IMG/VR virus record: IMGVR_UViG_3300033696_000004
Span: 36,031 to 100,030 of that record
DNA: 64,000 nt
Reading direction: 5' to 3' (one strand)
Origin: a virus
Lineage: Duplodnaviria > Heunggongvirae > Uroviricota > Caudoviricetes
Positions 556-57,364 of the stretch are shown here, in pieces. The notes beneath the pieces are model-generated. The model searched no databases. It saw nothing but the letters and a program-made list of their open reading frames with translations, and was not told the DNA's origin. A program made the position numbers and the translations under genes. How positions within the stretch are numbered: position 1 is the stretch's first letter; each line of letters starts with the position of its first letter.

Positions 556-631
556 GGATCTTTAGCTCAGTGGTTAGAGCGTTCGCCTGTTAAGTGAAGG
601 GTCATAGGTTCAAATCCTATAAGATCCGCCA
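556..631 (+). tRNA. tRNA-Asn (GUU)
   Basis: Hand-folded cloverleaf: acceptor ggatctt/aagatcc, D arm gctc..gagc, anticodon stem ttcgc/gtgaa with loop ctGTTaa, T arm atagg-ttcaaat-cctat, CCA encoded. Confidence 0.7.
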
Positions 632-713
632 ATAACAATTTACAAATGATGATTAAAATGGTAGATACCATGCCTTCGGGTTCAGTATTCGTATTCCAAA
701 TGAGGAATATAGA

Positions 714-1175
714 ATGCGACAAAAGCATTTAACGGATGAACAAATCATCGAAGGGTTTAACTCAATGAGTAAACCAAAGTTCAAATCGAGATTAGCTGTT
801 TACTTGGGTATTTCGATAAATACTGTAGTAAGGAGATGCAAGACTCTTGATTTGAAGTTTGATAAAAATGATAACATTGCCAACTTAGTAGCACATAGAC
901 AGAAAGTTCAAATCCCTCTATCTGAGATACTAGAAGGTAAGCATCCAAGTTATCAAACGCTTAAACTGAAGAAAAGATTAATTTCCAGCAACATTTTAGT
1001 TTACGAATGTTCTGAGTGTGGTATAATCGATTGGAATGGAAATCCCATTGCATTGCAATTAGATCATATAGATGGAAATCCACATAATCATGTATTATCC
1101 AATTTGAGACTAATTTGTCCAAATTGCCATAGTCAGACTGATACGTATTGTGGAAGAAACAAACAATCTGGGTAG
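714..1175 (+). CDS. HNH homing endonuclease
   Basis: 153 aa. C-terminal HNH/Zn motif CSECG...LQLDHIDGNPHNHVLSNLRLICPNCH. Inserted between tRNA genes, and its stop codon overlaps the tRNA-Tyr 5' end. Confidence 0.8.
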   Translation: MRQKHLTDEQIIEGFNSMSKPKFKSRLAVYLGISINTVVRRCKTLDLKFDKNDNIANLVAHRQKVQIPLSEILEGKHPSYQTLKLKKRLISSNILVYECSECGIIDWNGNPIALQLDHIDGNPHNHVLSNLRLICPNCHSQTDTYCGRNKQSG

Positions 1176-1255
1176 TTGGGTGAGTGGTTAAAACCAACGG
1201 GCTGTAAACCCGTCGCCTTTGCGCTTCGCTAGTTCGAATCTAGCACTGCCCACCA
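1170..1255 (+). tRNA. tRNA-Tyr (GUA), type II with long variable arm
   Basis: Acceptor gggtagt/actgccc, 3-bp D stem, anticodon stem acggg/cccgt with loop ctGTAaa, 14-nt variable arm, T arm gctag-ttcgaat-ctagc, CCA encoded. Confidence 0.7.
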
Positions 1256-1360
1256 ATTTAGAGATTTAGCGGATTGTCACGTAAAGGTGTTTGGCTACTT
1301 CTCTTTGAATTATGGTTGCCTGACGGCTATAAAAAGATGACTTCGAAGTCTGTCCACAAT

Positions 1361-1435
1361 TTTCCCATAGATTAATGGTTAGATCACCTCCCTTTCAAGG
1401 AGGCGGTACGGGTTCGAATCCCGTTGGGAAAACCA
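1361..1435 (+). tRNA. tRNA-Glu (UUC)
   Basis: Acceptor tttccca/tgggaaa, anticodon stem cctcc/ggagg with loop ctTTCaa, T arm acggg-ttcgaat-cccgt, CCA encoded. Confidence 0.65.
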
Positions 1436-1493
1436 ATTTAATGTGAGAATTATATTATGAATTATTATCCATCAACCTCTATAAAGAGATTTT

Positions 1494-1997
1494 ATGATAG
1501 AAGAATTCAAAATAGCAACGAAAACAAATTCACGTGGTGAAACCCAAGAGTTTTTGGTCAATTGTGATGGTTCGATAGTTAAGAATCCATCGACTGGTAA
1601 AGTATTGACTCCAGATCCAAAAGGGAAGTATTACAAGTATCGTATAAAATCAATACGTGCTTTGCTCCATTTCTTGGTATATAATGCATTCGTAGATCCA
1701 TCTTATGACGGTAGTGATACAAATTTGAAAATTGATCATGACGATGGTGATGAATATAATAACCATTATTCGAATCTTAACGTTATTTCACACTCAAATA
1801 ATGTGAAAAAATGCAAGCGTAATCCACCAATATCCGAAAATGAACTTCGTGAAATTGCTATTGACCGTTACGTCAACAATTTATCCATAATGAAGATTAG
1901 TCGGAAGTATAATCGGTCGGATTCTACTATACAGAATCTGTTTAGTGGTCGTCGCAATAAAAAGTTTCAAGAAATAAAATTGGAATTTATCAAATAA
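1494..1997 (+). CDS. HNH-type (HNH_3-like) homing endonuclease
   Basis: 167 aa. Motif LKIDHDDGDEYNNHYSNLNVISHSNN is typical of phage HNH_3 endonucleases. Second endonuclease ORF embedded in the tRNA island. Confidence 0.65.
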   Translation: MIEEFKIATKTNSRGETQEFLVNCDGSIVKNPSTGKVLTPDPKGKYYKYRIKSIRALLHFLVYNAFVDPSYDGSDTNLKIDHDDGDEYNNHYSNLNVISHSNNVKKCKRNPPISENELREIAIDRYVNNLSIMKISRKYNRSDSTIQNLFSGRRNKKFQEIKLEFIK

Positions 1998-2172
1998 TTG
2001 TTTACTTTCTTCTAAAAGAGAGTATACTAAAAGAATACCAAATAGGTTCAGTTCAGCAATCATAAACAAAATCATCTGTGAAATGAATAGTGTAGGTTCG
2101 AATCCTGCTGCGCTTGGTATAGCGTATGGTGTAACTGGCAGCACATAGTTATGAACCTGACAAATTAACAAT

Positions 2173-2249
2173 ACATGCGTAGCTCAGTTGGTTAGAGCAG
2201 GTCACTTTTAATGATCTGGTCGGTGGTTCGAGTCCACCTGCATGTACCA
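2173..2249 (+). tRNA. tRNA-Lys (UUU)
   Basis: Acceptor acatgcg/tgcatgt, D arm gctc..gagc, anticodon stem ggtca/tgatc with loop ctTTTaa, T arm ggtgg-ttcgagt-ccacc, CCA encoded. Confidence 0.7.
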
Positions 2250-2477
2250 ATTTCTTAATTAATAAGCATTCGGTGTTTATTAATTAAGGTGTTGGAACTT
2301 ACTTCATCATGATAAGATCTTTGGACTATAACCGTTATTGGTTATAGTTTTCAAAAGAATTTTGATAGATAAAGGTAACCTAAGTTCCATTAAGAATGTG
2401 TCTAAAATGAGAAAGCAGTACGTTAAAGATCCTCGTGGTGGTGATCCGCTTAACTCGACAGACCTTAAACAATTTCT

Positions 2478-2552
2478 GGGGTATTAGTATAATGGTTATT
2501 ATAAGGCGTTGTCTGCGCCATGATAAGGGTTCGATTCCCTTATACCTCGCCA
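2478..2552 (+). tRNA. tRNA-Asp (GUC), tentative
   Basis: Acceptor ggggtat/atacctc, T arm aaggg-ttcgatt-ccctt, CCA encoded, anticodon loop ttGTCtg. D stem and anticodon stem are imperfect. Confidence 0.5.
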
Positions 2553-2560
2553 AATTCTAT

Positions 2561-2692
2561 GGGTGTAGCTTATTATCAAGTGCGTTCAATCTAGAAACGA
2601 ATGCATAAAGGTATAGATAGGTCAAGCACTTTAATGTTAGTCTTGCAAGTAATAGCATTAATTCGTGGGTTCGATTCCCACTACATCTACTC
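2561..2692 (+). ncRNA. ~130-nt tRNA-like element (degenerate or expanded tRNA, or stable small RNA)
   Basis: gggtgta at the 5' end pairs (with 2 G-U) to tacatct directly after a good T arm gtggg-ttcgatt-cccac. The interior is ~55 nt too long for a tRNA and has no canonical D arm. Confidence 0.3.
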
Positions 2693-2812
2693 AACTTTTC
2701 CAATTAGTGATCTTATGAGAGTATTAACTAGAAAGGCTGACATTCAGCAAAACCTACTAATTATTTGAATCTTAATCAAACCATAGAGTAAGTTCAGCCT
2801 GAACAATTTAAT

Positions 2813-2889
<77 letters not shown>

Positions 2890-2895
2890 ATTTAT

Positions 2896-2971
2896 AGTTT
2901 CATAACTCAGTTGGGAGAGTGCTTCCCTTACAAGGAAGAAGTCGCTGGTTCGAGTCCAGTTGGAACTACCA
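2896..2971 (+). tRNA. tRNA-Val (UAC)
   Basis: Acceptor agtttca/tggaact, D arm actc..gagt, anticodon stem cttcc/ggaag with loop ctTACaa, T arm gctgg-ttcgagt-ccagt, CCA encoded. Confidence 0.7.
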
Positions 2972-3079
2972 AACAATGTGGTAAAATCGTGATGAACTGA
3001 CTATAGCAAACCTAGGAACTGCTGTAGGTGAAACATCATAAAGGGGAGTTGTAAAGATACTCACCACCACACCAAACAA

Positions 3080-3178
3080 TGAAGTAGCGTGGATGCTATG
3101 GGTTCGATTCCCTACAATCTCTGGATGGGTGAGTAGCTATAGATGCTACAATAGAAAGTGGTTCGACTCCACTTGACT
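3080..3178 (+). ncRNA. tRNA-like degenerate element containing two T-loop-like motifs
   Basis: gaagtag at 3080 partially pairs with tgacttc after T arm agtgg-ttcgact-ccact. An internal second ggg-ttcgatt-ccc motif is present. Preceded by the repeated leader ccaaacaatgaag. Confidence 0.25.
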
Positions 3179-3190
3179 TCGACAAACAAT

Positions 3191-3321
3191 GAAGATGCTT
3201 ACATTCGTGTAAGGAAATGCAGAGAAATCGGTAGGAAATAATTGGTAGCCTCTCACATAATGCGAATTAGCGCAGGACTGTTATGCTACTATCCGAAGTG
3301 AGTTCAAGTCTCACCATCTTC
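3191..3321 (+). ncRNA. ~131-nt tRNA-like element (perfect 7-bp acceptor plus T arm, expanded interior)
   Basis: gaagatg (3191-3197) is perfectly complementary to catcttc, which directly follows T arm gtgag-ttcaagt-ctcac. The interior is ~55 nt longer than a tRNA. Preceded by ccaaacaatgaag like element 3080. Confidence 0.3.
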
Positions 3322-3333
3322 ACCTTTTACAAT

Positions 3334-3418
3334 GCATTCGTGGTGGAATAGGCAGACACGCTAGGTTTAGGTCCTAGTGGAGAAATCCGTGAGAGTTCAA
3401 GTCTCTCCGAATGTACCA
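3334..3418 (+). tRNA. tRNA-Leu (UAG), type II
   Basis: Acceptor gcattcg/cgaatgt, 3-bp D stem gtg/cac, anticodon stem ctagg/cctag with loop ttTAGgt, 13-nt variable arm, T arm gagag-ttcaagt-ctctc, CCA encoded. Confidence 0.7.
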
Positions 3419-3525
3419 AATACGTATAGCGATTGTCTTCGCTTGACTTGCACGTATACGCCAAACGTATTCTAAACACTCAGACAACAAGCCCCAAATG
3501 CTTGTGTAATGCGGTCATCAATTTA

Positions 3526-3556
3526 AAAAGGAATCCTTCGGGGTTCCTTTTTTCGT
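3526..3556 (+). terminator. rho-independent terminator
   Basis: GC hairpin aggaatccttcggggttcct followed by a T run. Confidence 0.6.
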
Positions 3557-3623
3557 TTAAAGATGTTTCGAATTACAAAAACTATGCTATAATCAACACA
3601 ATTACTAACTAAAAGGAAAAATC

Positions 3624-4688
3624 ATGTTTTGGGATTCAATGCTATACATAATGAAAGTAACTGATGACTGTCCAATGCGTTGTGAGTATTGTACGGTTAA
3701 AGAAGAGTTCAAAGATAAAGAGATGGAAATCTCTACTATCGAAAATCTATTACGTAAGTCTAAGGGTATAGGCGAAATCCAGCTGACATTCTTGGGTGGT
3801 GAACCACTTATGTTGGGTGCTGAATGGTATCGTGAAGTATTTGCCCTAGCTGATCGTTACAGTCGTGAGATGAAATACAAAGTAACATACGAAATGTTCA
3901 CTAATGGTACATTCCTTAATGACGAACTTATGGACTTATTCGAAGAACATAAAGTTAAAATCTGGATGTCTTACGACGGTAAGGGTATCGGTGCTAAAGG
4001 TGGTAAACGCTCTCAGAAAATCCTACAGAAATACGGCTCTCGTTTGGGTGGAGTTAACGTTGTAGTACAAGACAAACATACCAGTTTGATTGATGTTTAC
4101 GAAGAATTACAAGGTTATGGTGTGCGTTACATGATGCATTATCTAAACCAGTACGATACTACTAATGTGGACTACTTCACAGATTTGATTCTAGAACTAT
4201 GCGATCATGTAGACAAGATTAAACGTCCTACCACTCGGTTTATGATGTATGACGACATGAAACGCCTTGCTAAATGGGACACAAATAAAACGCATTCATC
4301 TGCTACTGGTCGTGTTTATATTAATAACGACTTTGTGGTTCATACAGATGGTACTCTAAAAGGTGGTGTAGCTGCTTCTGACAATCCAGAATTTATTTAC
4401 GGTAACATCAACGAGATCAACCACATCATCGATGCTGTGTTCTCAGAGAATAACCAGAAACATAACCGTGATTACATAAAGAGTTTGGATCTTATCGGTG
4501 AGCATCAAGAAATCAATATGCTCACTCGTGGTGGTGGTTTCATCTGGAATAAACCAGACCAAGGAATACCGTTAGATAAGCCTAACATCCCTTACATTAA
4601 ACATTTCAAACGTGTCTTGGATCATGTTCGCTCAAAGAACACTGAACGTCCAGATGGTGTTAAACCAATGCAAACTCGCTGTTACTAG
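3624..4688 (+). CDS. radical SAM enzyme (function unknown)
   Basis: 354 aa. CPMRCEYC = CX3CX2C radical-SAM cluster motif near the N-terminus, and FLGGEPLM glycine-rich SAM motif. RBS aaaggaaaaatcATG. Early promoter upstream. Confidence 0.75.
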   Translation: MFWDSMLYIMKVTDDCPMRCEYCTVKEEFKDKEMEISTIENLLRKSKGIGEIQLTFLGGEPLMLGAEWYREVFALADRYSREMKYKVTYEMFTNGTFLNDELMDLFEEHKVKIWMSYDGKGIGAKGGKRSQKILQKYGSRLGGVNVVVQDKHTSLIDVYEELQGYGVRYMMHYLNQYDTTNVDYFTDLILELCDHVDKIKRPTTRFMMYDDMKRLAKWDTNKTHSSATGRVYINNDFVVHTDGTLKGGVAASDNPEFIYGNINEINHIIDAVFSENNQKHNRDYIKSLDLIGEHQEINMLTRGGGFIWNKPDQGIPLDKPNIPYIKHFKRVLDHVRSKNTERPDGVKPMQTRCY

Positions 4689-4695
4689 AGGTTTT

Positions 4696-5682
4696 ATGAA
4701 AAAAGTAGATTTAATTGTTGACATGCAATATGGGTCAACTGGAAAAGGTCTGATTGCTGGATACCTAGCAGAAAGGCATGGTTACGATACAGTAATTAAT
4801 GCTAACATGCCAAATGCTGGTCATACTTACATTAACAAAGCTGGTCGTAAGTGGATTCATAAGGTATTACCTAATGGTATCGTATCACCTAACCTTAAAC
4901 GTGTTATGATTGGTGCTGGTGCTGTATTCAGTCCAATGCAACTGCGTAAAGAAATTGAAAACAGCAAAGACCTCCTAGAAGGTGTTCGTATTATGATTCA
5001 CCCTAATGCGGTTCCTCTTACCGACGAACACGTGACTAACGACCAAGACGTGAGTAAGCGCATTGGTGGAACTGGTCAAGGTTCTGGTGGGGCATTACAA
5101 GCTAAGGTTAATCGTACTGCATTAGTTGCTAAAGACTATCAAATGTGGTTTAATAATTACGTGGTTACACACGATGAATGGAACCAAGCACTGATTGATT
5201 CGGACAAGATTTTAGCAGAAGGTGCTCAAGGATTCTCGCTTGGTGTTTCTGAGCGTTTCTATCCTTATTGTACGTCACGTGATTGCACTCCTGCTCGTTT
5301 CTTAGCAGACATGAGTATTCCAGTCCAGATGTTAAATGATGTGATTGGTGTAGTGCGTACGTATCCTATTCGCACTGGTGGTAATTCAGGTGGATTCTAC
5401 TCTGACCAAGTTGAAACTAGTTGGGATGAACTCAACCTAGACCCAGAATTCACTACAGTAACCAAGAAAGAACGTCGTGTGTTTACTTTTTCAAAGAAAC
5501 AAATAGAAGATGCTGTTTTTGGTATCAGACCAACTAAAATCTTCTTAAACTTCTGTAACTACAATACGGATGAAGAAGTAGGCGAACTTGTTAGTTTTAT
5601 CAACTCAGTTGCAGGAAACTACGGTGGTCGTGTTCGTTACTTAGGTCACGGTGCAACTTCACGCCATATAGAGACACTTTAA
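4696..5682 (+). CDS. adenylosuccinate synthetase homolog (short PurA/PurZ-like)
   Basis: ~328 aa from the ATG at 4696 (RBS gaggttttATG). Aligns by eye to the PurA P-loop (QYGSTGKG vs QWGDEGKGK), NAGHT, IGGTGQGSGG (vs TTGRGIGP) and AEGAQG (vs EGAQG). It is ~100 aa shorter than cellular PurA, and the catalytic Asp-Glu of the P-loop is replaced by Ser-Thr. Confidence 0.75.
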   Translation: MKKVDLIVDMQYGSTGKGLIAGYLAERHGYDTVINANMPNAGHTYINKAGRKWIHKVLPNGIVSPNLKRVMIGAGAVFSPMQLRKEIENSKDLLEGVRIMIHPNAVPLTDEHVTNDQDVSKRIGGTGQGSGGALQAKVNRTALVAKDYQMWFNNYVVTHDEWNQALIDSDKILAEGAQGFSLGVSERFYPYCTSRDCTPARFLADMSIPVQMLNDVIGVVRTYPIRTGGNSGGFYSDQVETSWDELNLDPEFTTVTKKERRVFTFSKKQIEDAVFGIRPTKIFLNFCNYNTDEEVGELVSFINSVAGNYGGRVRYLGHGATSRHIETL

Positions 5683-5685
5683 ATA

Positions 5686-5712
5686 AAAAGGAGCCTATGG
5701 CTCCTTTTTTAT
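5686..5712 (+). terminator. rho-independent terminator
   Basis: aaaaaggagcctatggctcctttttt hairpin plus T run after the purA-like gene. Confidence 0.6.
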
Positions 5713-5724
5713 TAGGAGAAATTC

Positions 5725-6321
5725 ATGCTAGTATTTTTACCAACAGCATCAAAAGAAATGCAAGATAAAGCGTTTGAGTACGCAAATAAAATAATGTCAG
5801 ATCCAAAGCAATTAGAAGCATTCCCTGCTACTGCTCCATGTCATGCGTTGTTGGGTAATCCAGATGGAAGACCATCTACATACACAGAACTAAGAGAAAT
5901 GCAAGTACAAGAAGAAGTAGATAGTTTTTATGCTACATACGATTTCGCTAGTGTTGATTCTAATGGTAATGTCGTTGGATTGATGGGATATAATACATCA
6001 AATACCGATGGGGTTGTGCGTGGTCACGGACCTTGGTTTGAACGTTTAGAAACAACTGGATTTACATTCAAACGAGACATTCCAGCCATTTACAAAGAAA
6101 CATTAAACAATACTCATGAGACAATGGTTTCTATATTCCAAGGTGAGTACAATAAGAAGTACCTAACACAGACATATAGAGATAACGATAAACTGAATGG
6201 ATTTGACCGTAACGTAACTAATGGTTATGTGTTGAAATCGTCACCAGTTAATCGTGTATGCAAAACCATGATGGGTACACATGTTCTTACTCGTTCGGTT
6301 ATACTGAAAGGTAATTTATAA
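5725..6321 (+). CDS. hypothetical protein
   Basis: 198 aa, RBS aggagaaattcATG. Co-directional and tightly packed with the rSAM/PurA-like genes. No motif recognised. Confidence 0.5.
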   Translation: MLVFLPTASKEMQDKAFEYANKIMSDPKQLEAFPATAPCHALLGNPDGRPSTYTELREMQVQEEVDSFYATYDFASVDSNGNVVGLMGYNTSNTDGVVRGHGPWFERLETTGFTFKRDIPAIYKETLNNTHETMVSIFQGEYNKKYLTQTYRDNDKLNGFDRNVTNGYVLKSSPVNRVCKTMMGTHVLTRSVILKGNL

Positions 6322-6881
6322 TGATTTATGAAATGAAAAATTTGGTCGCAGTTGACCAAGAGAAAGTTAAAGAATACATGAGAAATTACATTGCAGTAAG
6401 TCCACGTGTTGCTTTAACCGTAATGGATGATCCATCAATGGTTGACTTATCACCATCTAATGAGTTATTCTATGATTATCCTAAGCTTTGTCAAGAAAGA
6501 GAACGCCTTAATAAAGACATTACTCACTTTGACTTAGTTAGTATGCAAGATGGGGAAGTGTTAGGTTTGTTCTATTTTACAATTACTGGTACTGAAGGTG
6601 GATCGTTTACCATATATAGAACAGAACGTGATAAGCCGTTTGCATTTGGAAAGGATGTACAACGTGCGTATGATTATATGCACCAACGTACTACTGATTT
6701 CACTGTTGTAGTGTATCTTGATGGTGATAATCAAATAGAAGCAGATAGAATAAATGGTAGGGGTATAGTACATCACTTAGGTAAAGTTTATACAATTTAC
6801 CGTGAGTACTATACGTTGAAGAAGATGGGGGAACGTATAGCACCTTTGCTTATTTTACAAGTCCAAGGTGCTATGACTTAA
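6321..6881 (+). CDS. hypothetical protein
   Basis: 186 aa. Start overlaps the upstream stop (TAATG). No motif recognised. Confidence 0.5.
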   Translation: MIYEMKNLVAVDQEKVKEYMRNYIAVSPRVALTVMDDPSMVDLSPSNELFYDYPKLCQERERLNKDITHFDLVSMQDGEVLGLFYFTITGTEGGSFTIYRTERDKPFAFGKDVQRAYDYMHQRTTDFTVVVYLDGDNQIEADRINGRGIVHHLGKVYTIYREYYTLKKMGERIAPLLILQVQGAMT

Positions 6882-8393
6882 TTACAATCCGTTTTTGATA
6901 ATGTAGCTATTAACTATTACAAGAAGTTCGGTTCCCATTACCAATTGTCTATGTTCCTCTGACTGGGGAACATGGATTAGCTCGTAGGTTTCACCAGTAT
7001 ACACACGAATCATGTCACCCAGTATCTCGATCTTGCTGTAATTGTCTACATTATTATGGGTTTCTTGCACCTCATATACAGTAGTTTTACTATTGATACG
7101 ACGGCTCCATACTTCGAGTTCTAATGTATCTTTAGATACATGATTGATTAGTTCTTTTGGTACAATTAAGTGTGCATATTCTTGTAGTTCAGGTGGAACA
7201 CTATACACAACTTCGTGACCCATGCTAGATTTAACTGCTATCGTATAGTCGTTGTATTTGACAACTTCAGCTGCACCATCTTGTCCATCTTGTGTGATGT
7301 TAGATCTGGTTCCACTAATAACACTATCATGTGCTCCAGTTGCACCACCACCACCTCCAGCGTAAGAAGAACCAGCACCAGCAGCACCGTTACCGTTTCC
7401 ACCACCACCGTTTCCACCTCTACCAGCAAGATTTCCATTGTAAGTGCCACCATTGCCACCACCGCCACCACCGCTAAGACTACCGTTTCCACCACCTTGT
7501 CCGTTACCGTTTCCATCGGCTGCACCAGTACCGCCAGCTCCACCAGAACCGTTTCCGCATCCTCCACCGCCACCGCCACCGCCAAGTTTGATTTCACCTT
7601 TCGTTACAGCGTATTGTCTAGCACCACCACCACCACCGCCACCACCACCGCCTTGTATGTTATATGGTGAATTAATAGACCACGAAGTTGAACTACCACG
7701 CTGTAATCCAATACCACCACCACCGCCAGCAGAGCCGTTGGATTGTACATTACCGCCACGTCCACCATTACCGCCACGTCCTTGGATACGACCTCTACAG
7801 TCAAGGAAAACACTTTCGGCTTTTCCGCCCATGTTGTGACCATTGAATGCAGGAGTACCAGTTGATGTACCATACACCCATACACCCGTGTTTATAGTAA
7901 CGTTAACCTTTCCGTAAGCACCAGCACCAGCAGGAGGGTTGACGTTGTTTCTTAATACGTAGTTTGTTGCATTGCTACCAATAGTAATGTATAATTCCCA
8001 TGACTTACCACGTAGGTCATTCATAGAGATAGCACCAGATGGTTTTCCTGCTAATGATCTAACTTGTGCATCATTAAGATTGATCGATTGTGATGCTGGT
8101 CTACGCAATTCTGTATTGACCTGAGACATAGAAATTGTACCAGAAGGAAGTGTTCTGATAGAGACTGAACCTTTAAAGTCTGGATCTGTTTCTTTTTCTG
8201 GTGTAACATTATGTAGTTCCACGTATTCTGTGATTAGTTTGCGACTAATCGAACGTCTTTCCATCGTAGGTTCAATTAAGAAACGATGTCTACCTTTAGG
8301 GTATGTCAATTCGTAATAATAGCAGTTGTGGATTGGATCATAGTAAAGACCTTCGTTCTCCTTCAACCACCTAAGTTTTCTTTGTACTAACAT
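6882..8393 (-). CDS. glycine-rich repeat protein (possible late structural or adhesin-like protein)
   Basis: 503 aa and the only long minus-strand ORF. The central ~200 aa are poly-Gly/GN/GS tracts (GGGGGGGGGGARQY..., GGGGGGGGCGNGSGG...) flanked by ordinary N- and C-terminal domains. Resembles the glycine-rich motifs of T-even gp38-type adhesins. A CATAAATA (near-late-promoter) box lies upstream on the minus strand. Confidence 0.6.
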   Translation of the reverse strand: MLVQRKLRWLKENEGLYYDPIHNCYYYELTYPKGRHRFLIEPTMERRSISRKLITEYVELHNVTPEKETDPDFKGSVSIRTLPSGTISMSQVNTELRRPASQSINLNDAQVRSLAGKPSGAISMNDLRGKSWELYITIGSNATNYVLRNNVNPPAGAGAYGKVNVTINTGVWVYGTSTGTPAFNGHNMGGKAESVFLDCRGRIQGRGGNGGRGGNVQSNGSAGGGGGIGLQRGSSTSWSINSPYNIQGGGGGGGGGGARQYAVTKGEIKLGGGGGGGGCGNGSGGAGGTGAADGNGNGQGGGNGSLSGGGGGGNGGTYNGNLAGRGGNGGGGNGNGAAGAGSSYAGGGGGATGAHDSVISGTRSNITQDGQDGAAEVVKYNDYTIAVKSSMGHEVVYSVPPELQEYAHLIVPKELINHVSKDTLELEVWSRRINSKTTVYEVQETHNNVDNYSKIEILGDMIRVYTGETYELIHVPQSEEHRQLVMGTELLVIVNSYIIKNGL

Positions 8394-8440
8394 GCGATTC
8401 TTCCATTTTTGGTTTGATTATAATTTTATTTATGAAAGTT

Positions 8441-8469
8441 GTTTACTTTGGTTGAAATTGTGTTATTAT
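8441..8469 (+). promoter_or_regulatory. T4-type early promoter (GTTTAC -35, 17 bp spacer, TATTAT -10)
   Basis: gtttac at 8441-8446 and tattat at 8464-8469. Directs transcription into tRNA-Cys. Confidence 0.5.
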
Positions 8470-8481
8470 GAATACATAGAA

Positions 8482-8556
8482 GCACTGTTGCCAGAATAGT
8501 TATGGGGCGAATTGCAAATTCGTTGGAAGTAGGTGCAAGTCCTACACAGTGCTCCA
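8482..8556 (+). tRNA. tRNA-Cys (GCA), tentative
   Basis: Acceptor gcactgt/acagtgc, 3-bp D stem, anticodon stem gcgaa/ttcgt with loop ttGCAaa, T arm gtagg-tgcaagt-cctac (atypical G at position 55), CCA encoded. Confidence 0.5.
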
Positions 8557-8732
8557 TTTTAACGAGACTAAATAATAATGACAGTTGAAGAATTACTTAA
8601 AGAAATTGGTAATAAAGTGTTTACTCCTTCTGAAATTGATGTTATAATCAAACTTATAGAAGAACAAGAGCCTAAGCAATGCTCTGAAACAGAATTGCTA
8701 AATAGAACATACAGTCTTTAGTGTTTAAAGGT

Positions 8733-8804
8733 GTGGGCTTCCTCTAGCTGGTTAAGAGCACCGATTGTGATTCGGTCAACACGGATTCGAATTCCGTAGT
8801 CCAC
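8733..8804 (+). tRNA. tRNA-His (GUG)
   Basis: Acceptor gtgggct/agtccac, D arm ctct..agag, anticodon stem accga/tcggt with loop ttGTGat, T arm acgga-ttcgaat-tccgt. No encoded CCA. Confidence 0.6.
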
Positions 8805-8995
8805 CCCTTTACATATTAAGGAAACAGAGTATGTTAGTGTAAACTATTTTAATTTAACAAAATCTAACATTGGATTTAAGATAAAAGAAATCCAAGAATT
8901 GATTAACAAAACAAACAATCTTGTAGTCAAGAAACGTCTTATCGTTGAACTGACTTCGCTATTAGCCATACAGGATTTGTTTAAGAAAGAATAAT

Positions 8996-9071
8996 GGGTC
9001 GGTAACTCAGTTGGTAGAGTGTCGGATTGAAAATCCGATGGTCACTGGTTCAAATCCAGTCCGTCCCACCA
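8996..9071 (+). tRNA. tRNA-Phe (GAA)
   Basis: Acceptor gggtcgg/ccgtccc (one T-T mismatch), D arm actc..gagt, anticodon stem tcgga/tccga with loop ttGAAaa, T arm actgg-ttcaaat-ccagt, CCA encoded. Confidence 0.65.
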
Positions 9072-9214
9072 TAATTTTGTACAGACATGAGACTCAAAAC
9101 ATAGGCTGCTTGTTACAGGCTTAAAGAATGATATCTAACGCCTATTGAGAGAACAGCCGTTGTGGGAACACGTTTTGCTCATGGAAACCCTCTACAACAA
9201 ATTACAGGAATCTT

Positions 9215-9475
9215 ATGAAGATTTATAAGCCTCAAAATGTTGAAATTAACAAAAATGGTATTAGCTTCTTAGGAGCATTGACGTTATTGTTCATTGCTTT
9301 GAAGCTGACTGGTCATATTGCGTGGTCGTGGTGGTGGGTATTATCCCCATTATGGATACCATTCGCTATTGTTTTATGTGGTTTTATTTTAGTTTTATGC
9401 GGTATAGCTGCCAAAGTAGTATATACTGAACATTTAAGAAAGAAAGCTAATAAAATAAAAAATAATTTAAAATAA
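9215..9475 (+). CDS. small membrane protein
   Basis: 86 aa. Two hydrophobic helices (LGALTLLFIALKL, WWWVLSPLWIPFAIVLCGFILVLCGIAA) and a basic C-terminus. Confidence 0.5.
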   Translation: MKIYKPQNVEINKNGISFLGALTLLFIALKLTGHIAWSWWWVLSPLWIPFAIVLCGFILVLCGIAAKVVYTEHLRKKANKIKNNLK

Positions 9476-9477
9476 TT

Positions 9478-9506
9478 GTTTACTTTACTAGTAAATGTGT
9501 TATTAT
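9478..9506 (+). promoter_or_regulatory. T4-type early promoter
   Basis: gtttac 9478-9483, 17 bp, tattat 9501-9506. The -10 runs into tataaata, so it may also act as a late promoter. Confidence 0.45.
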
Positions 9507-9844
9507 AAATACATAAGTTGATTGGACGTTAATAGATGTTCTAGCCTAAGCTCTTAGGTCACGTTGATAACGGAGTCGTTCATTCAATTTAGTAAAACTT
9601 AGCTTTGTGTTGATATGTCGTATAGGCAAATGCACAATGTTAATGGGAAATGTTTCAGCAAACCATTAAAAAAAATCAAACTTAAATACTATAATTAAAG
9701 GTTGGAACGGATTGGGCTTAGGCAGAATCTTAGTACGCACAAGTAAATGTGTTAAAATAATCTAAAGTCACTGACTATGACCTCTTAACCTTTACATTTC
9801 CGTCTAAGTCAAAACATAATCAAGAGGGTTAAAATCCTCTTTCT

Positions 9845-9919
9845 AGGGATATGGTGTAATTGGTAACACAACAGACTTTGATTCTGTCGTTTTAGGTTCG
9901 AGACCTGATATCCCTACCA
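9845..9919 (+). tRNA. tRNA-Gln (UUG)
   Basis: Acceptor agggata/tatccct, D arm gtgt..acac, anticodon stem acaga/tctgt with loop ctTTGat, T arm ttagg-ttcgaga-cctga, CCA encoded. Confidence 0.65.
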
Positions 9920-10048
9920 ATTCTATAAGGTATTTCATGTTAGTTGAAACATACGTTAGTAAATGTGGTAACTACATAATCGAAGTGGAAACTGGACAAC
10001 CTATCCCTGATGGTTACATCAAAGGGAAAGACGAATAAATTGTATTGG

Positions 10049-10123
10049 AGTGGATTAGCTCAGGGGTAGAGCACAGTGCTGATAACGCTGGTGTCACTGG
10101 TTCAAATCCAGTATTCACTACCA
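10049..10123 (+). tRNA. tRNA-Ile (GAU)
   Basis: Acceptor agtggat/attcact, D arm gctc..gagc, anticodon stem cagtg/cgctg with loop ctGATaa, T arm actgg-ttcaaat-ccagt, CCA encoded. Confidence 0.65.
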
Positions 10124-10887
10124 ATACCATTTGTTTAGATGCATTTGTTATTATTCTCTATGTAAGACGTTAGTTTGACAAACTAACAACCTTCCGCATA
10201 AGTTGGTTTTAGAGAATGTTGTTTATTTCACGCAATGAGGATGATATTGCATCAAGGTGATTAACGTTGTAAATATCCTAGGGCGGTGTCTTTATCATCA
10301 AGGACATATTGAGGACATTTGTTGTTTGAATGACACTGGAACCGAAAGTGCTAACAGTGGTCTGCTACTCATTTGAAATTAAACTAAAACTCTGACTTGC
10401 CCCAGAAATGGTTGAGTCTCTTTCCATCTAAAAAATGGTTGTTGTCCGTGACACATAAAAGAGTTTAATTACAGGATCTTTTACCTTACTACAAGGGTTT
10501 ATGCATAAAGGCGCAGATGCATTAAATAATCCAATACAATGCTTCGGTAATGTTGGTATTCTAAGTCTGTAGAATTGACTTAGACGGGTATGTGGTCGGA
10601 GACAGACGATATGTAATTCCGATACTTGACTAGCAGGGTAAAACTAGAGGTCTCAATCCTAGACCAAATTAGAAAGCCGAATGGATAACTAATTCAAAAT
10701 CATTATGAGATAAGTCTCGTTGTGTAATGTTTCGTGGTGGTGAGTATTCCTCTTCGTAGAATGAATAAATACTTAGTAGGTGAGAGGGTTCTTACTATAA
10801 AATGATACCCGAAAAGTGCTGGCATTATCGTTCCCTATGCACTCTAAATTATCAAATGGAACCACGCTATCCGAAGGGATAGCATCT

Positions 10888-10962
10888 GCTTCTTTCATAT
10901 AATGGCTATTATGCCTCACTTGTAATGAGGTTATGGGAGTTCGAATCTCTCAAGGAGCACCA
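10888..10962 (+). tRNA. tRNA-Thr (UGU)
   Basis: Acceptor gcttctt/aaggagc, anticodon stem cctca/tgagg with loop ctTGTaa, T arm gggag-ttcgaat-ctctc, CCA encoded. Confidence 0.6.
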
Positions 10963-10968
10963 AATTCT

Positions 10969-11058
10969 GGAAGCGTGGTAGAGCACGGTTTATTGCAACT
11001 GACTTGAAATCAGTCGATCCGAAAGGATCCGTAGGTTCGAATCCTACCGCTTCCGCCA
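10969..11058 (+). tRNA. tRNA-Ser (UGA), type II
   Basis: Acceptor ggaagcg/cgcttcc, 3-bp D stem, anticodon stem actga/tcagt with loop ctTGAaa, long variable arm cgatccgaaaggatcc, T arm gtagg-ttcgaat-cctac, CCA encoded. Architecture is close to T4 tRNA-Ser. Confidence 0.7.
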
Positions 11059-11065
11059 AATTCAT

Positions 11066-11139
11066 GCGTCACTGGTATAAGGGTTGTGCCTTAGCCTTCC
11101 AAGCTAATGATAGGAGTTCGAATCTCCTGTGACGCTCCA
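11066..11139 (+). tRNA. tRNA-Gly (UCC)
   Basis: Acceptor gcgtcac/gtgacgc, anticodon stem ttagc/gctaa with loop ctTCCaa, T arm aggag-ttcgaat-ctcct, CCA encoded. D arm is non-canonical. Confidence 0.6.
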
Positions 11140-11161
11140 ATTCACTTAACGGACAAACACT

Positions 11162-11389
11162 ATGACTATTACTATCGTAGATGTCATGGTTGCACATCAC
11201 CTTGGTGGTGCTAAAGAACTAGCACATTTCAACAACCAAGAAGATGCATATCGTTTAGTTTCTCGCTTAGACGAAGAAGCATTTGCATTTGCTGATGTAA
11301 TTTATCATGTGAAAACTGATGACACTAGCGACCATTTACAAACAAGATTCACACTATTAGAGAATCTACAACATGAATTACAACCTTAA
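11162..11389 (+). CDS. hypothetical protein
   Basis: 75 aa ORF directly after the tRNA block. Confidence 0.4.
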   Translation: MTITIVDVMVAHHLGGAKELAHFNNQEDAYRLVSRLDEEAFAFADVIYHVKTDDTSDHLQTRFTLLENLQHELQP

Positions 11390-11645
11390 TCACATTATTA
11401 TCTACTACAAAGATGAAGACCCGTACTACGAAGACGAGTTAACATTCCGTGGAAAATCTCCAGATGATGCACTAGGTTTTATAAAAACGATAGACGAAAG
11501 TCAATTCATAGGTTTAGTCATTGAATTGGAAGAAAATCGTGTCATTCATTCAGGTTCTATTGATCCATTGGATTACGAAATCGATGAAGTAGATGATTAT
11601 AAAAAAGCTATTGATGTATTGGATAAATTATCCGATGAATACTAA
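11373..11645 (+). CDS. hypothetical protein
   Basis: 90 aa acidic ORF overlapping its upstream neighbour. Confidence 0.4.
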   Translation: MNYNLNHIIIYYKDEDPYYEDELTFRGKSPDDALGFIKTIDESQFIGLVIELEENRVIHSGSIDPLDYEIDEVDDYKKAIDVLDKLSDEY

Positions 11646-12054
11646 ACAAATTGGAATAATAACAGAGACAAAGTTTGTATTCGAGTGTTCGAAGTTAGGT
11701 CTGACTGTAAGTCAACCTATTGGTGACAATGCACCATACGACTTCATTGTTGATTTCAATGGAATCCTGAAACGTATACAATGTAAAAATTTACGAAAAT
11801 CTGGATTGAAATACATAGCAGAAACAAATAAAAAAACTGGACATAAGCGTGATACGAAAGTATTATACAAAGGTCTATGTGATTATTTCTTCTTATATAA
11901 CATAGAAGATGATAAGTTTGCATTCATAGATGTTGACAAATGTTCAGTTTCGGTTACACTATGGTCTAGTAAAGATAAATCCGAATCTGATTCGAGAATC
12001 CGATTTATAGAAGATTATAATGAAATAAAGAATAATTGCGAGTTGGAGAAGTAG
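11593..12054 (+). CDS. possible PD-(D/E)xK-fold nuclease-like protein
   Basis: 153 aa (start uncertain, 11593 or 11635). Spacing of D...E.K-like residues: PYDFIVDFNG...KRIQCK. The last 18 nt overlap tRNA-Met. Confidence 0.35.
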   Translation: MIIKKLLMYWINYPMNTKQIGIITETKFVFECSKLGLTVSQPIGDNAPYDFIVDFNGILKRIQCKNLRKSGLKYIAETNKKTGHKRDTKVLYKGLCDYFFLYNIEDDKFAFIDVDKCSVSVTLWSSKDKSESDSRIRFIEDYNEIKNNCELEK

Positions 12055-12112
12055 CTATCTCGTTGGGTTCATATCCCAAAGGTCACTGGTGCAATTCCAG
12101 TACTCGCTACCA
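12037..12112 (+). tRNA. tRNA-Met (CAU) with initiator-like features
   Basis: Acceptor tgcgagt/actcgct with a 1:72 T-T mismatch, D arm gaga..tctc, anticodon stem ttggg/cccaa (three consecutive G-C pairs) with loop ttCATat, T arm actgg-tgcaatt-ccagt, CCA encoded. Confidence 0.6.
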
Positions 12113-12118
12113 AATTAT

Positions 12119-12191
12119 AGGGGGTTAGTTCAGTTGGTAGAACGTTGGATTCCAAATCCAAATGCCGAGGGTTCAAGTCCTTCATCCCCTG
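12119..12191 (+). tRNA. tRNA-Trp (CCA)
   Basis: Acceptor agggggt/atcccct, D arm gttc..gaac, anticodon stem ttgga/tccaa with loop ttCCAaa, T arm gaggg-ttcaagt-ccttc. No encoded CCA. Confidence 0.65.
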
Positions 12192-12197
12192 CATTCC

Positions 12198-12227
12198 AAA
12201 AGGAAGTCTTCGGACTTCCTTTTTTCG
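12198..12227 (+). terminator. rho-independent terminator
   Basis: ggaagtcttcggacttcc hairpin plus T run, ending the tRNA transcription unit. Confidence 0.6.
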
Positions 12228-12245
12228 TATCTAAGGATTATAAAA

Positions 12246-12785
12246 ATGAGTTTTAAACATACAGAAGCATCAATGCAGAAATTGATATACTCTAACCAAC
12301 ATAGATTTTGTACGTCGTATGAAGTAATGGTTCCTAACTGTTATAATACACATGATAATGAATGCGATTTGTACGCTATTAGAAAGAGTGGGTTATGCGA
12401 CGAGATTGAAATCAAGATTTCACGTTCTGATTTCTTATGTGATTCGAAGAAGCATGTTGCTTATAGAAGATCGAGTGGATCTGAATACCGTGAGTATAAC
12501 ATGTTAACAGAGTCTGTCAAGAAAAAGACTATTCCACCTTGGTCTAAAACTAAACATGACTGTTTATGTGATGGTATTCTAAGTAACTACTATTGGTACG
12601 TTGTTAAGGAAGGTATCGCAGAAGCTCACGAAGCACCACCATGGGCTGGTTTCGTTACCGTTGATGACAATGGTCGGATGAAGGTTATACGCTCTCCTAA
12701 GCGATTACATAGAGGAAAACTGACAACAGAAGAGATGTATAAAACTGCTCGTAAAATGTACTTTAGATACTGGAATTTGGTATAA
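12246..12785 (+). CDS. PD-(D/E)xK nuclease-like protein
   Basis: ~179 aa from the ATG at 12246 (RBS aagga). The listed 12162 start would run through tRNA-Trp and the terminator. Motif ECDLYAI...DEIEIKISRSDF has D...E.K spacing. Confidence 0.4.
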   Translation: MSFKHTEASMQKLIYSNQHRFCTSYEVMVPNCYNTHDNECDLYAIRKSGLCDEIEIKISRSDFLCDSKKHVAYRRSSGSEYREYNMLTESVKKKTIPPWSKTKHDCLCDGILSNYYWYVVKEGIAEAHEAPPWAGFVTVDDNGRMKVIRSPKRLHRGKLTTEEMYKTARKMYFRYWNLV

Positions 12786-12849: not shown

Positions 12850-13455
12850 ATGAAAACATCTATTATTTGTGTACTTGACCGTAGCGGCTCTATGTCACAC
12901 ATCATGAACGAAGCAGTTGGTACATTTAATGGTTTCGTAGACGGTCAACGTGAAGTTGAAGGCGAAGCAGAAGTATCTCTATACGCATTCAACTGGGAAA
13001 TCAATAAAGTTTTTGATAAGGTTCCACTTCCACAAGTTAAACCTCTCGAACTAAGCCAAGTTATTCCCACTGGTGGTACATCATTATATGATGCTATCGG
13101 TCGTGCTATCTTAGAATGCAATAACGAAAATGCTATTGTTCTTATCCAAACAGATGGTGAAGAAAATACATCTAAAGTCTTTAACGACAAGACAATCAAA
13201 GAAATGATTCGTGTTAAAGAAGCAATGGGTTGGGAATTCCACTTCATTGGTGCTGGTGTTGACGCATTCAAAGCTGGTCAAAGCTTCGGTATTGCTGCAT
13301 CAAATTGTCTAAACGTAGCAGCTAGTGCTAAAGGCATGGGTGATATGGGTGCTTACTTCTCAAGTACAACTCAGTTATACCGTTCGTCTAAAGCTCATAA
13401 ACCGACACCGTTTGACGTTGGTGGCAACCAAAACGGTTGGACTGAATCTAAATAA
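12850..13455 (+). CDS. von Willebrand factor A (vWA) domain protein
   Basis: 201 aa. MIDAS motif DRSGSM near the N-terminus, then TGGTSLYDAI and QTDGEEN motifs typical of vWA. Confidence 0.65.
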   Translation: MKTSIICVLDRSGSMSHIMNEAVGTFNGFVDGQREVEGEAEVSLYAFNWEINKVFDKVPLPQVKPLELSQVIPTGGTSLYDAIGRAILECNNENAIVLIQTDGEENTSKVFNDKTIKEMIRVKEAMGWEFHFIGAGVDAFKAGQSFGIAASNCLNVAASAKGMGDMGAYFSSTTQLYRSSKAHKPTPFDVGGNQNGWTESK

Positions 13456-13457
13456 TA

Positions 13458-13486
13458 AAAAGATCCCTTCAGGGGATCTTTTTTCG
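13458..13486 (+). terminator. rho-independent terminator
   Basis: agatcccttcaggggatct hairpin plus T run. Confidence 0.6.
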
Positions 13487-13516
13487 TATCTACAAATCAA
13501 TAAGGAATGAAAATAA

Positions 13517-13888
13517 ATGAAATCATATTTATTCAGAACATCAAAGTTAGAACATTTCATAGCAGTATGTGATGATTCTAAAAATGAAGCAACTGTAATT
13601 ACATCATCGTGTCCGACCATCACGTCGGGAGATGTAATTGACTACAATGAACTTACGCATCATGCACAAATCAGAGAGATTCCTGTTGAATATGGAACAC
13701 GTGTTGAAGGTGGTCAACACCTAAACGTTAATGTGTTAAACAAAGAAACTCTAGAAGATGCAATCATTAATCCAGATAAGTATCCTCAATTAACTATTCG
13801 GGTATCGGGTTATGCTGTTCGTTTTAATTCGTTAACATCAGAACAGAAAAATGATGTAATATCTCGTACGTTTACTAAGTCGATTTAG
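13517..13888 (+). CDS. grcA: autonomous glycyl-radical cofactor (GrcA/YfiD-like)
   Basis: 123 aa. C-terminal half is near-identical in pattern to the E. coli GrcA that I recall: [50 protein letters not shown], including the RVSGY glycine-radical motif. Confidence 0.8.
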
Positions 13889-17108: not shown

Positions 17109-17137
17109 TTTACAGATACCAATTTATAGTGTATAAT
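17108..17137 (+). promoter_or_regulatory. T4-type early promoter
   Basis: gtttac 17108-17113 and tataat 17132-17137. Confidence 0.5.
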
Positions 17138-17167
17138 CTTGACATAAATCAACAAAGAGGAAATCAA

Positions 17168-17818
17168 ATGAAATTAGTTGCTATTGAGGGAAGCATAGGG
17201 ACAGGTAAGTCAACGCTACTTCCGAAACTAGTGAAATCATTATGTGAGCGTACAAGTGATGAATGGGTACAACTCCAAGAACCAGTTAATGATCCTGAAT
17301 TCCTTCGCTTACTGCAAGAATTTACTCAGAATCCAGATGACGCAGTGAAGCGTATTGAATTTCAGATGTACATTACTAATCGTCGTTCTGAAATGCTAAA
17401 AGACATCGATCCAAATGGTAACTATGTTATTGAGCGTAGTTTGTTCTCTGACCTCGTATTCTGCCAAACGAATATGCTTGCTACTGAACGTCCAGATGGT
17501 GCTTACCTAGGTTATTATTATGACATTAAAGACCGTCTAGAACATTATCCACGGGTTAATGCGTTAATCTACTTGAAGTCTGACCCTTATAAGTCGTATA
17601 ACCGCATGTTGGAGCGTGGTCGTGCTGAAGAAGCTGGTACTCCATACGAGTACTTTATGGACTTGGAAGCGTTCCATGTAGCGTGTTTACCTCAAATCTG
17701 TCGCAACTACAAGACCCCTTACATTGAGATCGATTGGACTGATTTTGGTGATGTTGAAGAAGTTGCAAAGAAAATCGAATACACCCTAGCTTATCAAGAT
17801 CAAGTTGGTACATGGTAA
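17168..17818 (+). CDS. deoxynucleoside kinase (dNK family)
   Basis: 216 aa from the ATG at 17168 (RBS aaagaggaaatcaaATG). P-loop IEGSIGTGKST and the ERS/DR motifs of the dCK/dGK family. Confidence 0.7.
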   Translation: MKLVAIEGSIGTGKSTLLPKLVKSLCERTSDEWVQLQEPVNDPEFLRLLQEFTQNPDDAVKRIEFQMYITNRRSEMLKDIDPNGNYVIERSLFSDLVFCQTNMLATERPDGAYLGYYYDIKDRLEHYPRVNALIYLKSDPYKSYNRMLERGRAEEAGTPYEYFMDLEAFHVACLPQICRNYKTPYIEIDWTDFGDVEEVAKKIEYTLAYQDQVGTW

Positions 17819-57363: not shown

Positions 57364-57364
57364 A

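Follow-up and report, generated by a model that had tools for sequence, protein, structure and literature searches.

A stretch of 64,000 nucleotides from a virus of the class Caudoviricetes (IMG/VR record IMGVR_UViG_3300033696_000004, positions 36,031 to 100,030), referred to below as the window, contains a compact block of four genes in which a radical S-adenosylmethionine enzyme, here named rSAM1, precedes a homolog of adenylosuccinate synthetase (PurA) and two further proteins encoded by the open reading frames ORF3 and ORF4. The window corresponds to positions ~28,491-92,490 of scaffold ERZ28627235 RIIS19-1_SAMEA5043646_METAG-scaffold_2 (128,588 bp) and comprises a T4-like early/middle region (nrdAB, nrdDG, gp55, 47, 46, 43, uvsX, 41, 61, Dut, dexA, Dam, gp39). 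The encoded DNA polymerase shows 55% identity to its nearest GenBank relative, and megablast of the gene block against 50,697 phage records yielded no match; the host of the block is a novel marine T4-like myovirus with a family-B polymerase. The analysis suggests that PurZ, the enzyme behind 2-aminoadenine (Z) synthesis, occurs here in a new virus group, in firm association with a rare rSAM/GNAT module and, in the span searched, without the accessory genes that are canonical for it, and that this cassette hints at a route of purine or DNA modification that has not been described so far. All four open reading frames that had been predicted from the letters alone are present on the + strand; together with the flanking features they are:

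3521..3556, + strand: intrinsic terminator stem-loop (GGAATCC-TTCG-GGGTTCC and a T-run; RNAfold -15.3 kcal/mol)
3564..3593, + strand: putative early-type promoter as read from the sequence (-35 TGTTTCG, 3564-3570; -10 TGcTATAAT, 3585-3593)
3624..4688, + strand: rSAM1, radical SAM enzyme, 354 aa
4696..5682, + strand: PurZ (N6-succino-2-amino-2'-deoxyadenylate synthase), 328 aa, of the subclade linked to rSAM1
5725..6321, + strand: ORF3, divergent GNAT-fold protein, 198 aa
6321..6881, + strand: ORF4, GNAT-like paralogue of ORF3, 186 aa
6882..8393, - strand: gp38-like tail-fibre adhesin, 503 aa (Pfam PF05268 GP38; phrog_2056 tail fibre)

The four genes are tightly packed, with 7 nt between rSAM1 and purZ, 42 nt between purZ and ORF3, and an ORF4 start that overlaps the ORF3 stop (ATGA). 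The purZ start was placed at ATG 4696 and the ORF3 start at 5725, as homologs (including phiVC8 PurZ) open at the same MK(K/N)VDL in the former case and keep the N-terminus MLV[YF]LPTAS in the latter. The cassette is bordered on the left by the terminator, which ends the tRNA-Leu unit lying upstream; this stem-loop is one of a repeated family (D7) that has further copies at 12193-12228 and 13452-13487. A shared early-type promoter had been postulated for the block, and a matching element indeed lies directly 3' of the terminator, with 14 nt from the -35 to the TGc of the extended -10 and 17 nt between the hexamers. It was missed by a strict/simple sigma-70 scan of the window and resembles the repeated early promoters (D5; TGTTTAC...TATTAT) at 1-47, 8440-8486 and 9477-9523.

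The protein encoded by 4696-5682 had been described as a truncated relative of PurA, possibly of the PurZ type. The claimed PurA-family motifs are there (P-loop QYGSTGKG, NAGHTY, GGTGQG and EGAQG), as is a Pfam Adenylsucc_synt match (1.5e-34). The label 'truncated' is wrong, in that the protein is a close relative of the crystallised PurZ of phiVC8, to which it is 57.6% identical end-to-end, as compared to 31.9% for Ghobes PurZ0 and 27% for E. coli PurA. A search of the PDB ranked phiVC8 PurZ first (6FM1; E 7.6e-118, residues 1-326), followed by S-2L PurZ (7ODX; 3.3e-55), archaeal PurA and PurZ0 (~1e-28) and bacterial PurA (1e-19), and the protein also matched phrog_1211 (6e-89). The suggestion of a PurZ-type enzyme was borne out by the NCBIfam hidden Markov models: the PurZ model NF038379.2 scored 335.9 bits (cut-off 300), whereas the PurA models remained at 46-154 bits against cut-offs of 368-700 (e.g. 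TIGR00184, 131.7 versus 395.6).

The same picture emerges from the active site. The residues associated with PurZ specificity (for their roles see bioRxiv 10.1101/2025.10.22.683976 and PMC8342488) are retained, namely Ser14, Ile34, Thr262, Phe295, Asn297 and Tyr298 in phiVC8 numbering, and the sole change, Phe12 to Tyr, is conservative (window numbering Y12, S14, T253, F286, N288, Y289). In PurA the catalytic Asp13 shows 99% conservation, whereas the 147 PurZ/PurZ0 sequences of phages all have Ser instead (PMC12884076); the protein under study carries Ser14, which means that the P-loop substitution named in the original prediction was correct. Moreover, the C-terminal third of E. coli PurA, i.e. 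the part that binds GTP/guanine, has no counterpart in the 328 residues present here (PurA has ~430). One could still think of an ordinary auxiliary purA that raises AMP synthesis during infection, considering that Pfam assigns the protein solely to Adenylsucc_synt and that the phage holds many salvage genes. Yet the Ser in place of Asp13, the PurA model scores far below cut-off, the low identity to E. coli PurA relative to phiVC8 PurZ and the missing GTP-binding part all argue against it, and this explanation, which had been left open initially, is effectively excluded. Assignment to PurZ0, the type found in Actinobacteria phages (Ghobes, Wayne) and accompanied there by dutZ/dmtZ, was rejected on the basis of the identities given above, the lack of an NDT-like gene (for the span searched see below) and a canonical Dut. 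We conclude that the gene very probably encodes a functional PurZ-type enzyme.

PurZ-like matches were found in 205 of the 50,697 GenBank phage records and 198 of these cover at least 80% of the query, but the weakest ones are not PurZ, e.g. an annotated adenylosuccinate synthetase on a Salmonella contig (27% identity) and a partial match in a Listeria phage fragment. Among the 100 matches listed of the 205 there is no T4-like phage; the named isolates among those listed all have genomes of 38-67 kb, and the only very large phage is an uncultured one of 735 kb (31% identity). Similarly, a literature search retrieved no report that ties PurZ to radical SAM enzymes, to myoviruses/T4-like phages or to prophages. 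The window protein belongs to a separate subclade of seven clusters (P0001-P0007) that share 66-87% identity with each other and at most 61% with all others. All seven members carry the subclade-specific changes L10M, E118D and S127G (phiVC8 numbering; window residues 10, 116 and 125), at positions where the 54 closest canonical PurZ sequences show 94-100% conservation, with Ser127 at 100%. In comparison to the PurZ of phiVC8 (6FM0/6FM1) and S-2L (7ODX), the protein thus has the short architecture, the Ser for Asp and the same residues around the 2-amino pocket and in the ATP site. The carriers, however, are unlike the known ones: instead of podo- or siphoviruses of 38-67 kb, they are a T4-like myovirus with a family-B polymerase and, as described below, a temperate HK97-type prophage.

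The first gene of the cassette was assigned to a radical SAM enzyme from its CX3CX2C motif, and rightly so: the protein contains CPMRCEYC and matches Pfam Radical_SAM with 51.5 bits (cut-off 29.5). Cysteines 16, 20 and 23 and the GGEP motif (G58-G59-E60-P61) are invariant in 12 homologs. The modelled structure (pTM 0.77) is a partial TIM barrel, which resembles the anSME/SPASM fold over ~306 residues with the N-terminal CX3CX2C in the same position. The alignment of the 12 homologs lacks a Cys-rich SPASM/twitch motif, i.e. the cysteines of the auxiliary clusters, and conserves one C-terminal Cys. Therein rSAM1 differs from the anSME and SPASM/twitch maturases that constitute its best structural matches over ~300 residues (anSMEcpe, ChlB, CteB and SuiB), as it does in its partners, which are PurZ and GNAT-fold proteins and not a precursor peptide or sulfatase. 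The best NCBIfam matches, which include a Gly-rich-repeat maturase, are peptide maturases and cover residues 9-121, whereas scores against curated family models do not exceed 72 bits (cut-offs of at least 300). The family is rare. Among 5.8 billion proteins it accounts for 12 clusters (90% identity), and among 1.84 billion for 10 representatives at E<=1e-30; no match was obtained in scans of IMG/VR (with the single protein or the alignment) and of GTDB species genomes or in an exact 44-mer lookup in IMG/VR, and a scan of JGI metagenomes returned one 5.3-kb contig.

The remaining two proteins, which were initially said to be without recognisable motifs, are in fact GNAT-fold paralogues. They are linked to each other by jackhmmer and by joint alignments, and both display the GNAT topology beta1-alpha1-alpha2-beta2-4-alpha3-beta5-alpha4-beta6 with the V-shaped cleft that in GNAT enzymes takes up coenzyme A (CoA). 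Their best matches within the GNAT fold are ribosomal-protein N-acetyltransferases, and a BFVD fold search with ORF3 gave only weak generic GNAT matches. Kinship with the Mom-like protein encoded elsewhere in the window was rejected at the sequence level (hhalign probability 1.3%).

The association between rSAM1 and PurZ is not particular to the window. We recovered it in T4-like or short contigs (L009/L010, L022 and L023) and in a prophage of Vibrio parahaemolyticus, with the following identities to the window proteins:

L009/L010, T4-like: rSAM1 81%, PurZ 66%, ORF3 59%, ORF4 47%; gp38-like gene convergent
L022, T4-like: rSAM1 84%, PurZ 73%, ORF3 55%, ORF4 55%; gp38-like gene convergent
L023, short contig: rSAM1 79%, PurZ 74%, ORF3 56%, ORF4 absent; gp38-like gene convergent
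V. parahaemolyticus prophage, temperate, HK97-type: rSAM1 80%, PurZ 70%, ORF3 58% at a distance of 9.4 kb; ORF4 and gp38-like gene absent

On every contig that is long enough, rSAM1 lies directly upstream of the subclade purZ (identity of at least 66%), and no canonical purZ has rSAM1 next to it. The rSAM1 (at least 79%) and PurZ subclades match one-to-one over two unrelated phage types, and of the two rSAM1 is the more conserved across the linked contexts. The prophage is integrated beside a heme-uptake locus on contig ABQCSY010000007.1 of GCA_036424195.1 (L020 7616-10603, L007 8952-10993) and carries HK97-type head genes along with a large serine recombinase. The rSAM1 stop codon of the prophage shares a base with the purZ start, and its ORF3 homolog adjoins the integrase, with antirestriction and antirepressor genes close by. 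The ORF3 family accompanies rSAM1 in every context looked at, and ORF4 homologs occur in L009, L022 and L012 (a locus without purZ, see below) but not in L023 or the prophage.

Canonical Z-clusters combine purZ with genes for a dATPase (DatZ or DutZ/DUF5664), a dGTP pyrophosphatase (MazZ or DUF550) and often the polymerase DpoZ. That the present arrangement would not be a known Z-cluster was noted from the outset, and homology searches and precomputed Pfam assignments agree: DatZ/HD, MazZ/MazG, DUF550, DUF5664, NDT and PolA/DpoZ were not found in the 78.7 kb of the source scaffold (positions 22,114-100,790) that the scaffold-level searches covered, nor did the same searches reveal them in the prophage, L009, L022 or L023. 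Likewise, phmmer/jackhmmer searches with phiVC8 DatZ, the MazZ-like p26, p23 and p24 and with Ghobes gp51-55 matched only ordinary Dut in the window and the related loci. In the positive control, a contig with a canonical PurZ of 54% identity (L004), a MazZ-like gene and datZ were readily detected directly downstream of purZ, as in phiVC8. Synteny of purZ with a dATPase and a dGTP pyrophosphatase, by which a Z-cluster is defined, is thus not observed in the searched span or in the related loci, and the cassette differs from the phiVC8 and S-2L systems in its separate PurZ subclade, in the radical SAM gene that is always upstream and in the absence, as far as searched, of DatZ, MazZ, DUF550, DUF5664 and DpoZ. 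The window Dut was considered as a possible 'DutZ', but it has the five canonical dUTPase motifs and 29% identity to gp55, the Dut-family gene beside Ghobes PurZ0, and nothing supports an altered specificity, so that it is at most a candidate.

From the gene identities, the folds and the conserved linkage, which the analysis established, we infer the following chemistry. PurZ would convert dGMP, aspartate and ATP into N6-succino-2-amino-dAMP (dSMP), which host PurB together with kinases of the phage or the host would turn into dZTP (the triphosphate of 2-amino-2'-deoxyadenosine, dZ), and the T4-type family-B polymerase would then incorporate dZTP opposite T. In sequencing, Z is read as A. The breakdown of host DNA that is typical of T4-type phages can provide dGMP, and the phage NupC-like transporter, dNK-family kinase, thymidine kinase and ribonucleotide reductases would add to that supply. 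In the absence of DatZ and MazZ the replacement of A by Z is expected to be partial, unless there is an unrecognised dATPase; most polymerases accept dZTP, and in a published reconstitution an incomplete Z-cluster gave lower substitution (PMC8342488). The reading that we prefer, and to which we attach an even chance, is a mobile cassette, transcribed early, for the synthesis of dZ nucleotides, which would probably lead to a partial A-to-Z replacement, with a coupled radical/acyl-transfer step.

Without a dATP-exclusion enzyme in the searched 78.7 kb, PurZ and its partners might alternatively act on nucleotide pools or make a small-molecule analogue, in the service of anti-defence, superinfection exclusion or host inhibition. 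The positions of the cassette, namely near antirestriction and antirepressor genes in a temperate prophage and near Acb1 and Tad2-like anti-defence genes on the T4-like scaffold, would suit such a role, and expression of a Z-cluster is toxic to E. coli (PMC8342488). We nevertheless deem it improbable, because polymerases incorporate dZTP once it is present and no gene for export, immunity or regulation is evident in the cassette. Furthermore, every characterised PurZ known to us serves the synthesis of Z-DNA.

What rSAM1 and the GNAT-fold proteins would contribute can be approached by analogy. They most likely perform a radical, acyl-CoA-dependent modification, which in the purZ cassettes would be directed at the purine made by PurZ or at nucleic acid that contains it; that they act in the pathway of PurZ at all is a proposition that we advance tentatively, at somewhat less than even confidence. 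In Elp3, an acetyl-CoA radical that is generated by the rSAM domain on the GNAT domain modifies a base (carboxymethylation of U34), and for Mom, which has the GNAT fold, a trans-acting rSAM has been proposed by its authors as the radical source (PMC7261163). The cassette shares the combination of rSAM and GNAT fold with Elp3 (cm5U/ncm5U in tRNA) and Mu Mom (ncm6A in DNA), and the genome has a Mom-like gene, but here rSAM and GNAT are separate genes and the CoA motif is not recognisable in ORF3/4. Membership of the Elp3-type radical carboxymethylases was rejected, as these are characterised by a fused rSAM and GNAT and an Elp3-type rSAM domain, which were not found.

The parallel with Elp3 raises the question of tRNA, all the more as the cassette is embedded in a tRNA gene array with 18 members, where tRNA-Leu (3334-3418) lies on one side of it and tRNA-Cys (8482-8556) on the other. 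rSAM1 and the GNAT-fold proteins could then be a split Elp3-like modifier of phage tRNAs with PurZ as an unrelated passenger. Since the cassettes of L022 and L009 are not flanked by tRNA among the called genes and the prophage context has no link to tRNA either, we regard this explanation as highly improbable.

A third parallel is found in thymidine hypermodification, where rSAM and acetyltransferase enzymes tailor conjugates between amino acids and nucleobases in phage DNA (PMC8989533). Similar to the pathways of Pseudomonas phage M6, Salmonella phage ViI and PaMx11, in which an amino acid on the base is followed by rSAM and/or GNAT tailoring, PurZ puts aspartate on a purine. However, their substrate is 5-hmdU in DNA that is already polymerised, they proceed via a kinase and aGPT-Pplase, their rSAM resembles spore-photoproduct lyase, and there is no homology to the cassette proteins. 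By extension, the triad could make a base that has not been described in DNA, with rSAM1 and GNAT tailoring the aspartate-purine conjugate of PurZ or 2,6-diaminopurine, either in place of the plain cleavage to Z by PurB or on top of it. Conceivable routes would be a radical decarboxylation/rearrangement of the succinyl moiety or a carboxymethylation/acylation at N2 or N6. T4-like and temperate Vibrio phages would then contain a hypermodified derivative of Z, with S127G and the one-to-one linkage of rSAM and PurZ as the signatures of the altered pathway. We consider this rather unlikely.

A number of observations weigh against a cassette for dZ synthesis with a coupled radical step. Firstly, residue Ser127 corresponds to Ser131 of S-2L, which lines the dGMP pocket (pocket roles in PMC8342488), and it is exactly there that the conservation of the pocket fails, with Gly in all seven members of the rSAM-linked subclade; S127G implies that the substrate of PurZ may not be plain dGMP. 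Secondly, neither ORF3 nor ORF4 has a GNAT match in Pfam or NCBIfam, the family has F-(G/E/K)-(K/R)-D in the loop that precedes alpha3, and the Q/R-x-x-G-x-G/A motif for the CoA pyrophosphate is not recognisable. Thirdly, a Dam-type methylase and a Mom-like gene are present, and adenine-directed modification is thus retained in the genome. Fourthly, the searches for helper genes covered 78.7 kb of the 128,588-bp scaffold, and a dATPase could lie outside that span. Fifthly, the predicted fold of rSAM1 is that of the SPASM enzymes that modify proteins and peptides.

Further points come from T4-like relatives without purZ. Vibrio phage D479 (L001) has rSAM1 (64%) with a second rSAM and an ORF3-like gene, and in the contigs L012-15 an rSAM1-like gene (47%) is translationally coupled to a gp38-like gene; converging on it are two genes of the ORF3/4 type together with genes for a GrcA-like protein and an rSAM paralogue. 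The function of rSAM1 and GNAT can consequently not depend on the product of PurZ, and the coupling in L012 points to a protein substrate. The occurrence of the module in D479 and L012-15 without purZ also implies that it predates the acquisition of PurZ: rSAM and GNAT are therefore the older core, to which PurZ was joined in one lineage. Of the original idea that the rSAM cassette is a PurZ or Z-like pathway, the link between rSAM and PurZ thus stands, being conserved in L009/L010, L022, L023 and the prophage, whereas this older and wider occurrence means that the cassette is more than a mere PurZ pathway. The co-inherited block also includes a gp38-like gene.

That gene encodes an adhesin (6882-8393) with a Gly/Asn-rich tract of ~200 aa; it has the late orientation within the early tRNA region and converges on the cassette. 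The gp38-like genes of L009 (7289-8773), L022 and L023 are convergent as well, and L012 has one at 11017-12417. The adhesin gene is co-inherited with the cassette in the T4-like contigs and is a putative member of it, and maturation of the tail-fibre adhesin by the radical SAM enzyme is a possibility. PurZ would in that case be a stand-alone moron whose gene inserted between those of rSAM1 and the GNAT-fold proteins. The module of rSAM1 and GNAT would modify a protein in the manner of anSME or RiPP maturases and N-acetyltransferases; its most plausible target would be the gp38-like adhesin or some other protein of the virion or the host. Such a division into two separate functions is in agreement with the peptide maturases (including the Gly-rich-repeat maturase) as top NCBIfam matches of rSAM1, with the ribosomal-protein N-acetyltransferases as best GNAT matches, with the rSAM1-GNAT modules that have no purZ, and with a gp38-like gene that is convergent in each T4-like context and coupled to the rSAM1 homolog in L012. 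On the other hand, the prophage keeps rSAM1-PurZ and ORF3 in the absence of a gp38-like gene, the one-to-one match of the rSAM1 and PurZ subclades extends over two unrelated phage types, and rSAM1 is devoid of the auxiliary-cluster cysteines. On balance we judge two separate functions to be unlikely, albeit deserving of serious consideration. Near the modules without purZ we also noted genes for QueC-like PP-loop ATPases (D479/L001 13011-13817; L012 8663-9436 and 9294-9887), and in L012 a short-chain dehydrogenase alongside. In the D479 and L012 modules, the role of PurZ may thus fall to another ATP-dependent C-N ligase.

To our knowledge, the Z-genomes described to date belong to small sipho- and podoviruses with PurZ-DatZ-MazZ(-DpoZ). 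If the synthesis of dZ by the cassette is true, the presence of PurZ in T4-like myoviruses and a temperate prophage without the DatZ-MazZ(-DpoZ) toolkit would widen the range of Z-DNA chemistry, and the system would show how dZTP is handled by, or supplied to, a family-B replisome. At the same time, the coupling of rSAM, GNAT and PurZ provides a lead that could end in a new enzyme partnership for the modification of purines or DNA, or in the radical-partner logic of Mom-type chemistry. The prophage of V. parahaemolyticus GCA_036424195.1, which has the core genes, offers a culturable entry point.

Other features of the window concern nucleotide metabolism and DNA modification. Three nucleoside salvage genes that are rare for a phage, encoding a dNK-family deoxynucleoside kinase (17129-17818), a thymidine kinase (25818-26384) and a NupC-type concentrative transporter (28092-29300), could be a source of dGMP for PurZ. 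The gp56 slot is occupied by a trimeric Dut (56660-57091) with all five canonical motifs, followed by a Nudt16-like Nudix hydrolase (57323-57895). Because Dut-like enzymes fulfil these tasks in PurZ0 phages, the two are considered candidates for the removal of dATP or the supply of dGMP. dCMP hydroxymethylase (gp42) and the glucosyltransferases had been reported missing from their T4-syntenic slots, and indeed neither slot holds them: between 43 and uvsX there is a gap of 129 nt, and between 55 and 47 only a gene for a 122-aa DUF2654 protein. The Dam-type (MethyltransfD12) N6-adenine methyltransferase is encoded at 58914-59750, in the same genome as PurZ and the Mom-like gene; methylation is reportedly lowered at Z-containing sites. 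The Mom-like DNA-modification gene (PF25680; 13996-14634) adjoins a gene for a GrcA/T4-Y06I-like autonomous glycyl-radical protein (13517-13888), whereas in L009, L010 and L012 it is the rSAM gene that directly follows a GrcA-like gene. In L009 the cassette thereby occupies the position that Mom has in the window, i.e. between the GrcA-like and DUF2828 genes.

The array of tRNA genes spans 556-12192 and is broken by HNH endonuclease genes (714-1175 and 1494-1997), the cassette, repeated early promoters and stem-loop terminators, in a layout reminiscent of the promoter/stem-loop shuffling units known from T4-type phages; the cassette region is plastic (tRNA/hyperplastic), with homing-type HNH genes close by. 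Further accessory genes encode a NatV-like NMNAT-Nudix protein (26836-27948), NadV (33929-35365), Sir2 (35831-36577), an RlaP nucleotidyltransferase (30362-31402) and a DUF2828/TROVE-like protein (14721-16121) with a VWA-like partner (12850-13455), a complement that is usual in T4-like phages of the KVP40/Aeromonas type. Just beyond the window, the source scaffold encodes Acb1 (anti-CBASS), CsrA-like and Tad2-like proteins (L011 1-439 and 6209-6376; L016 18611-18946).

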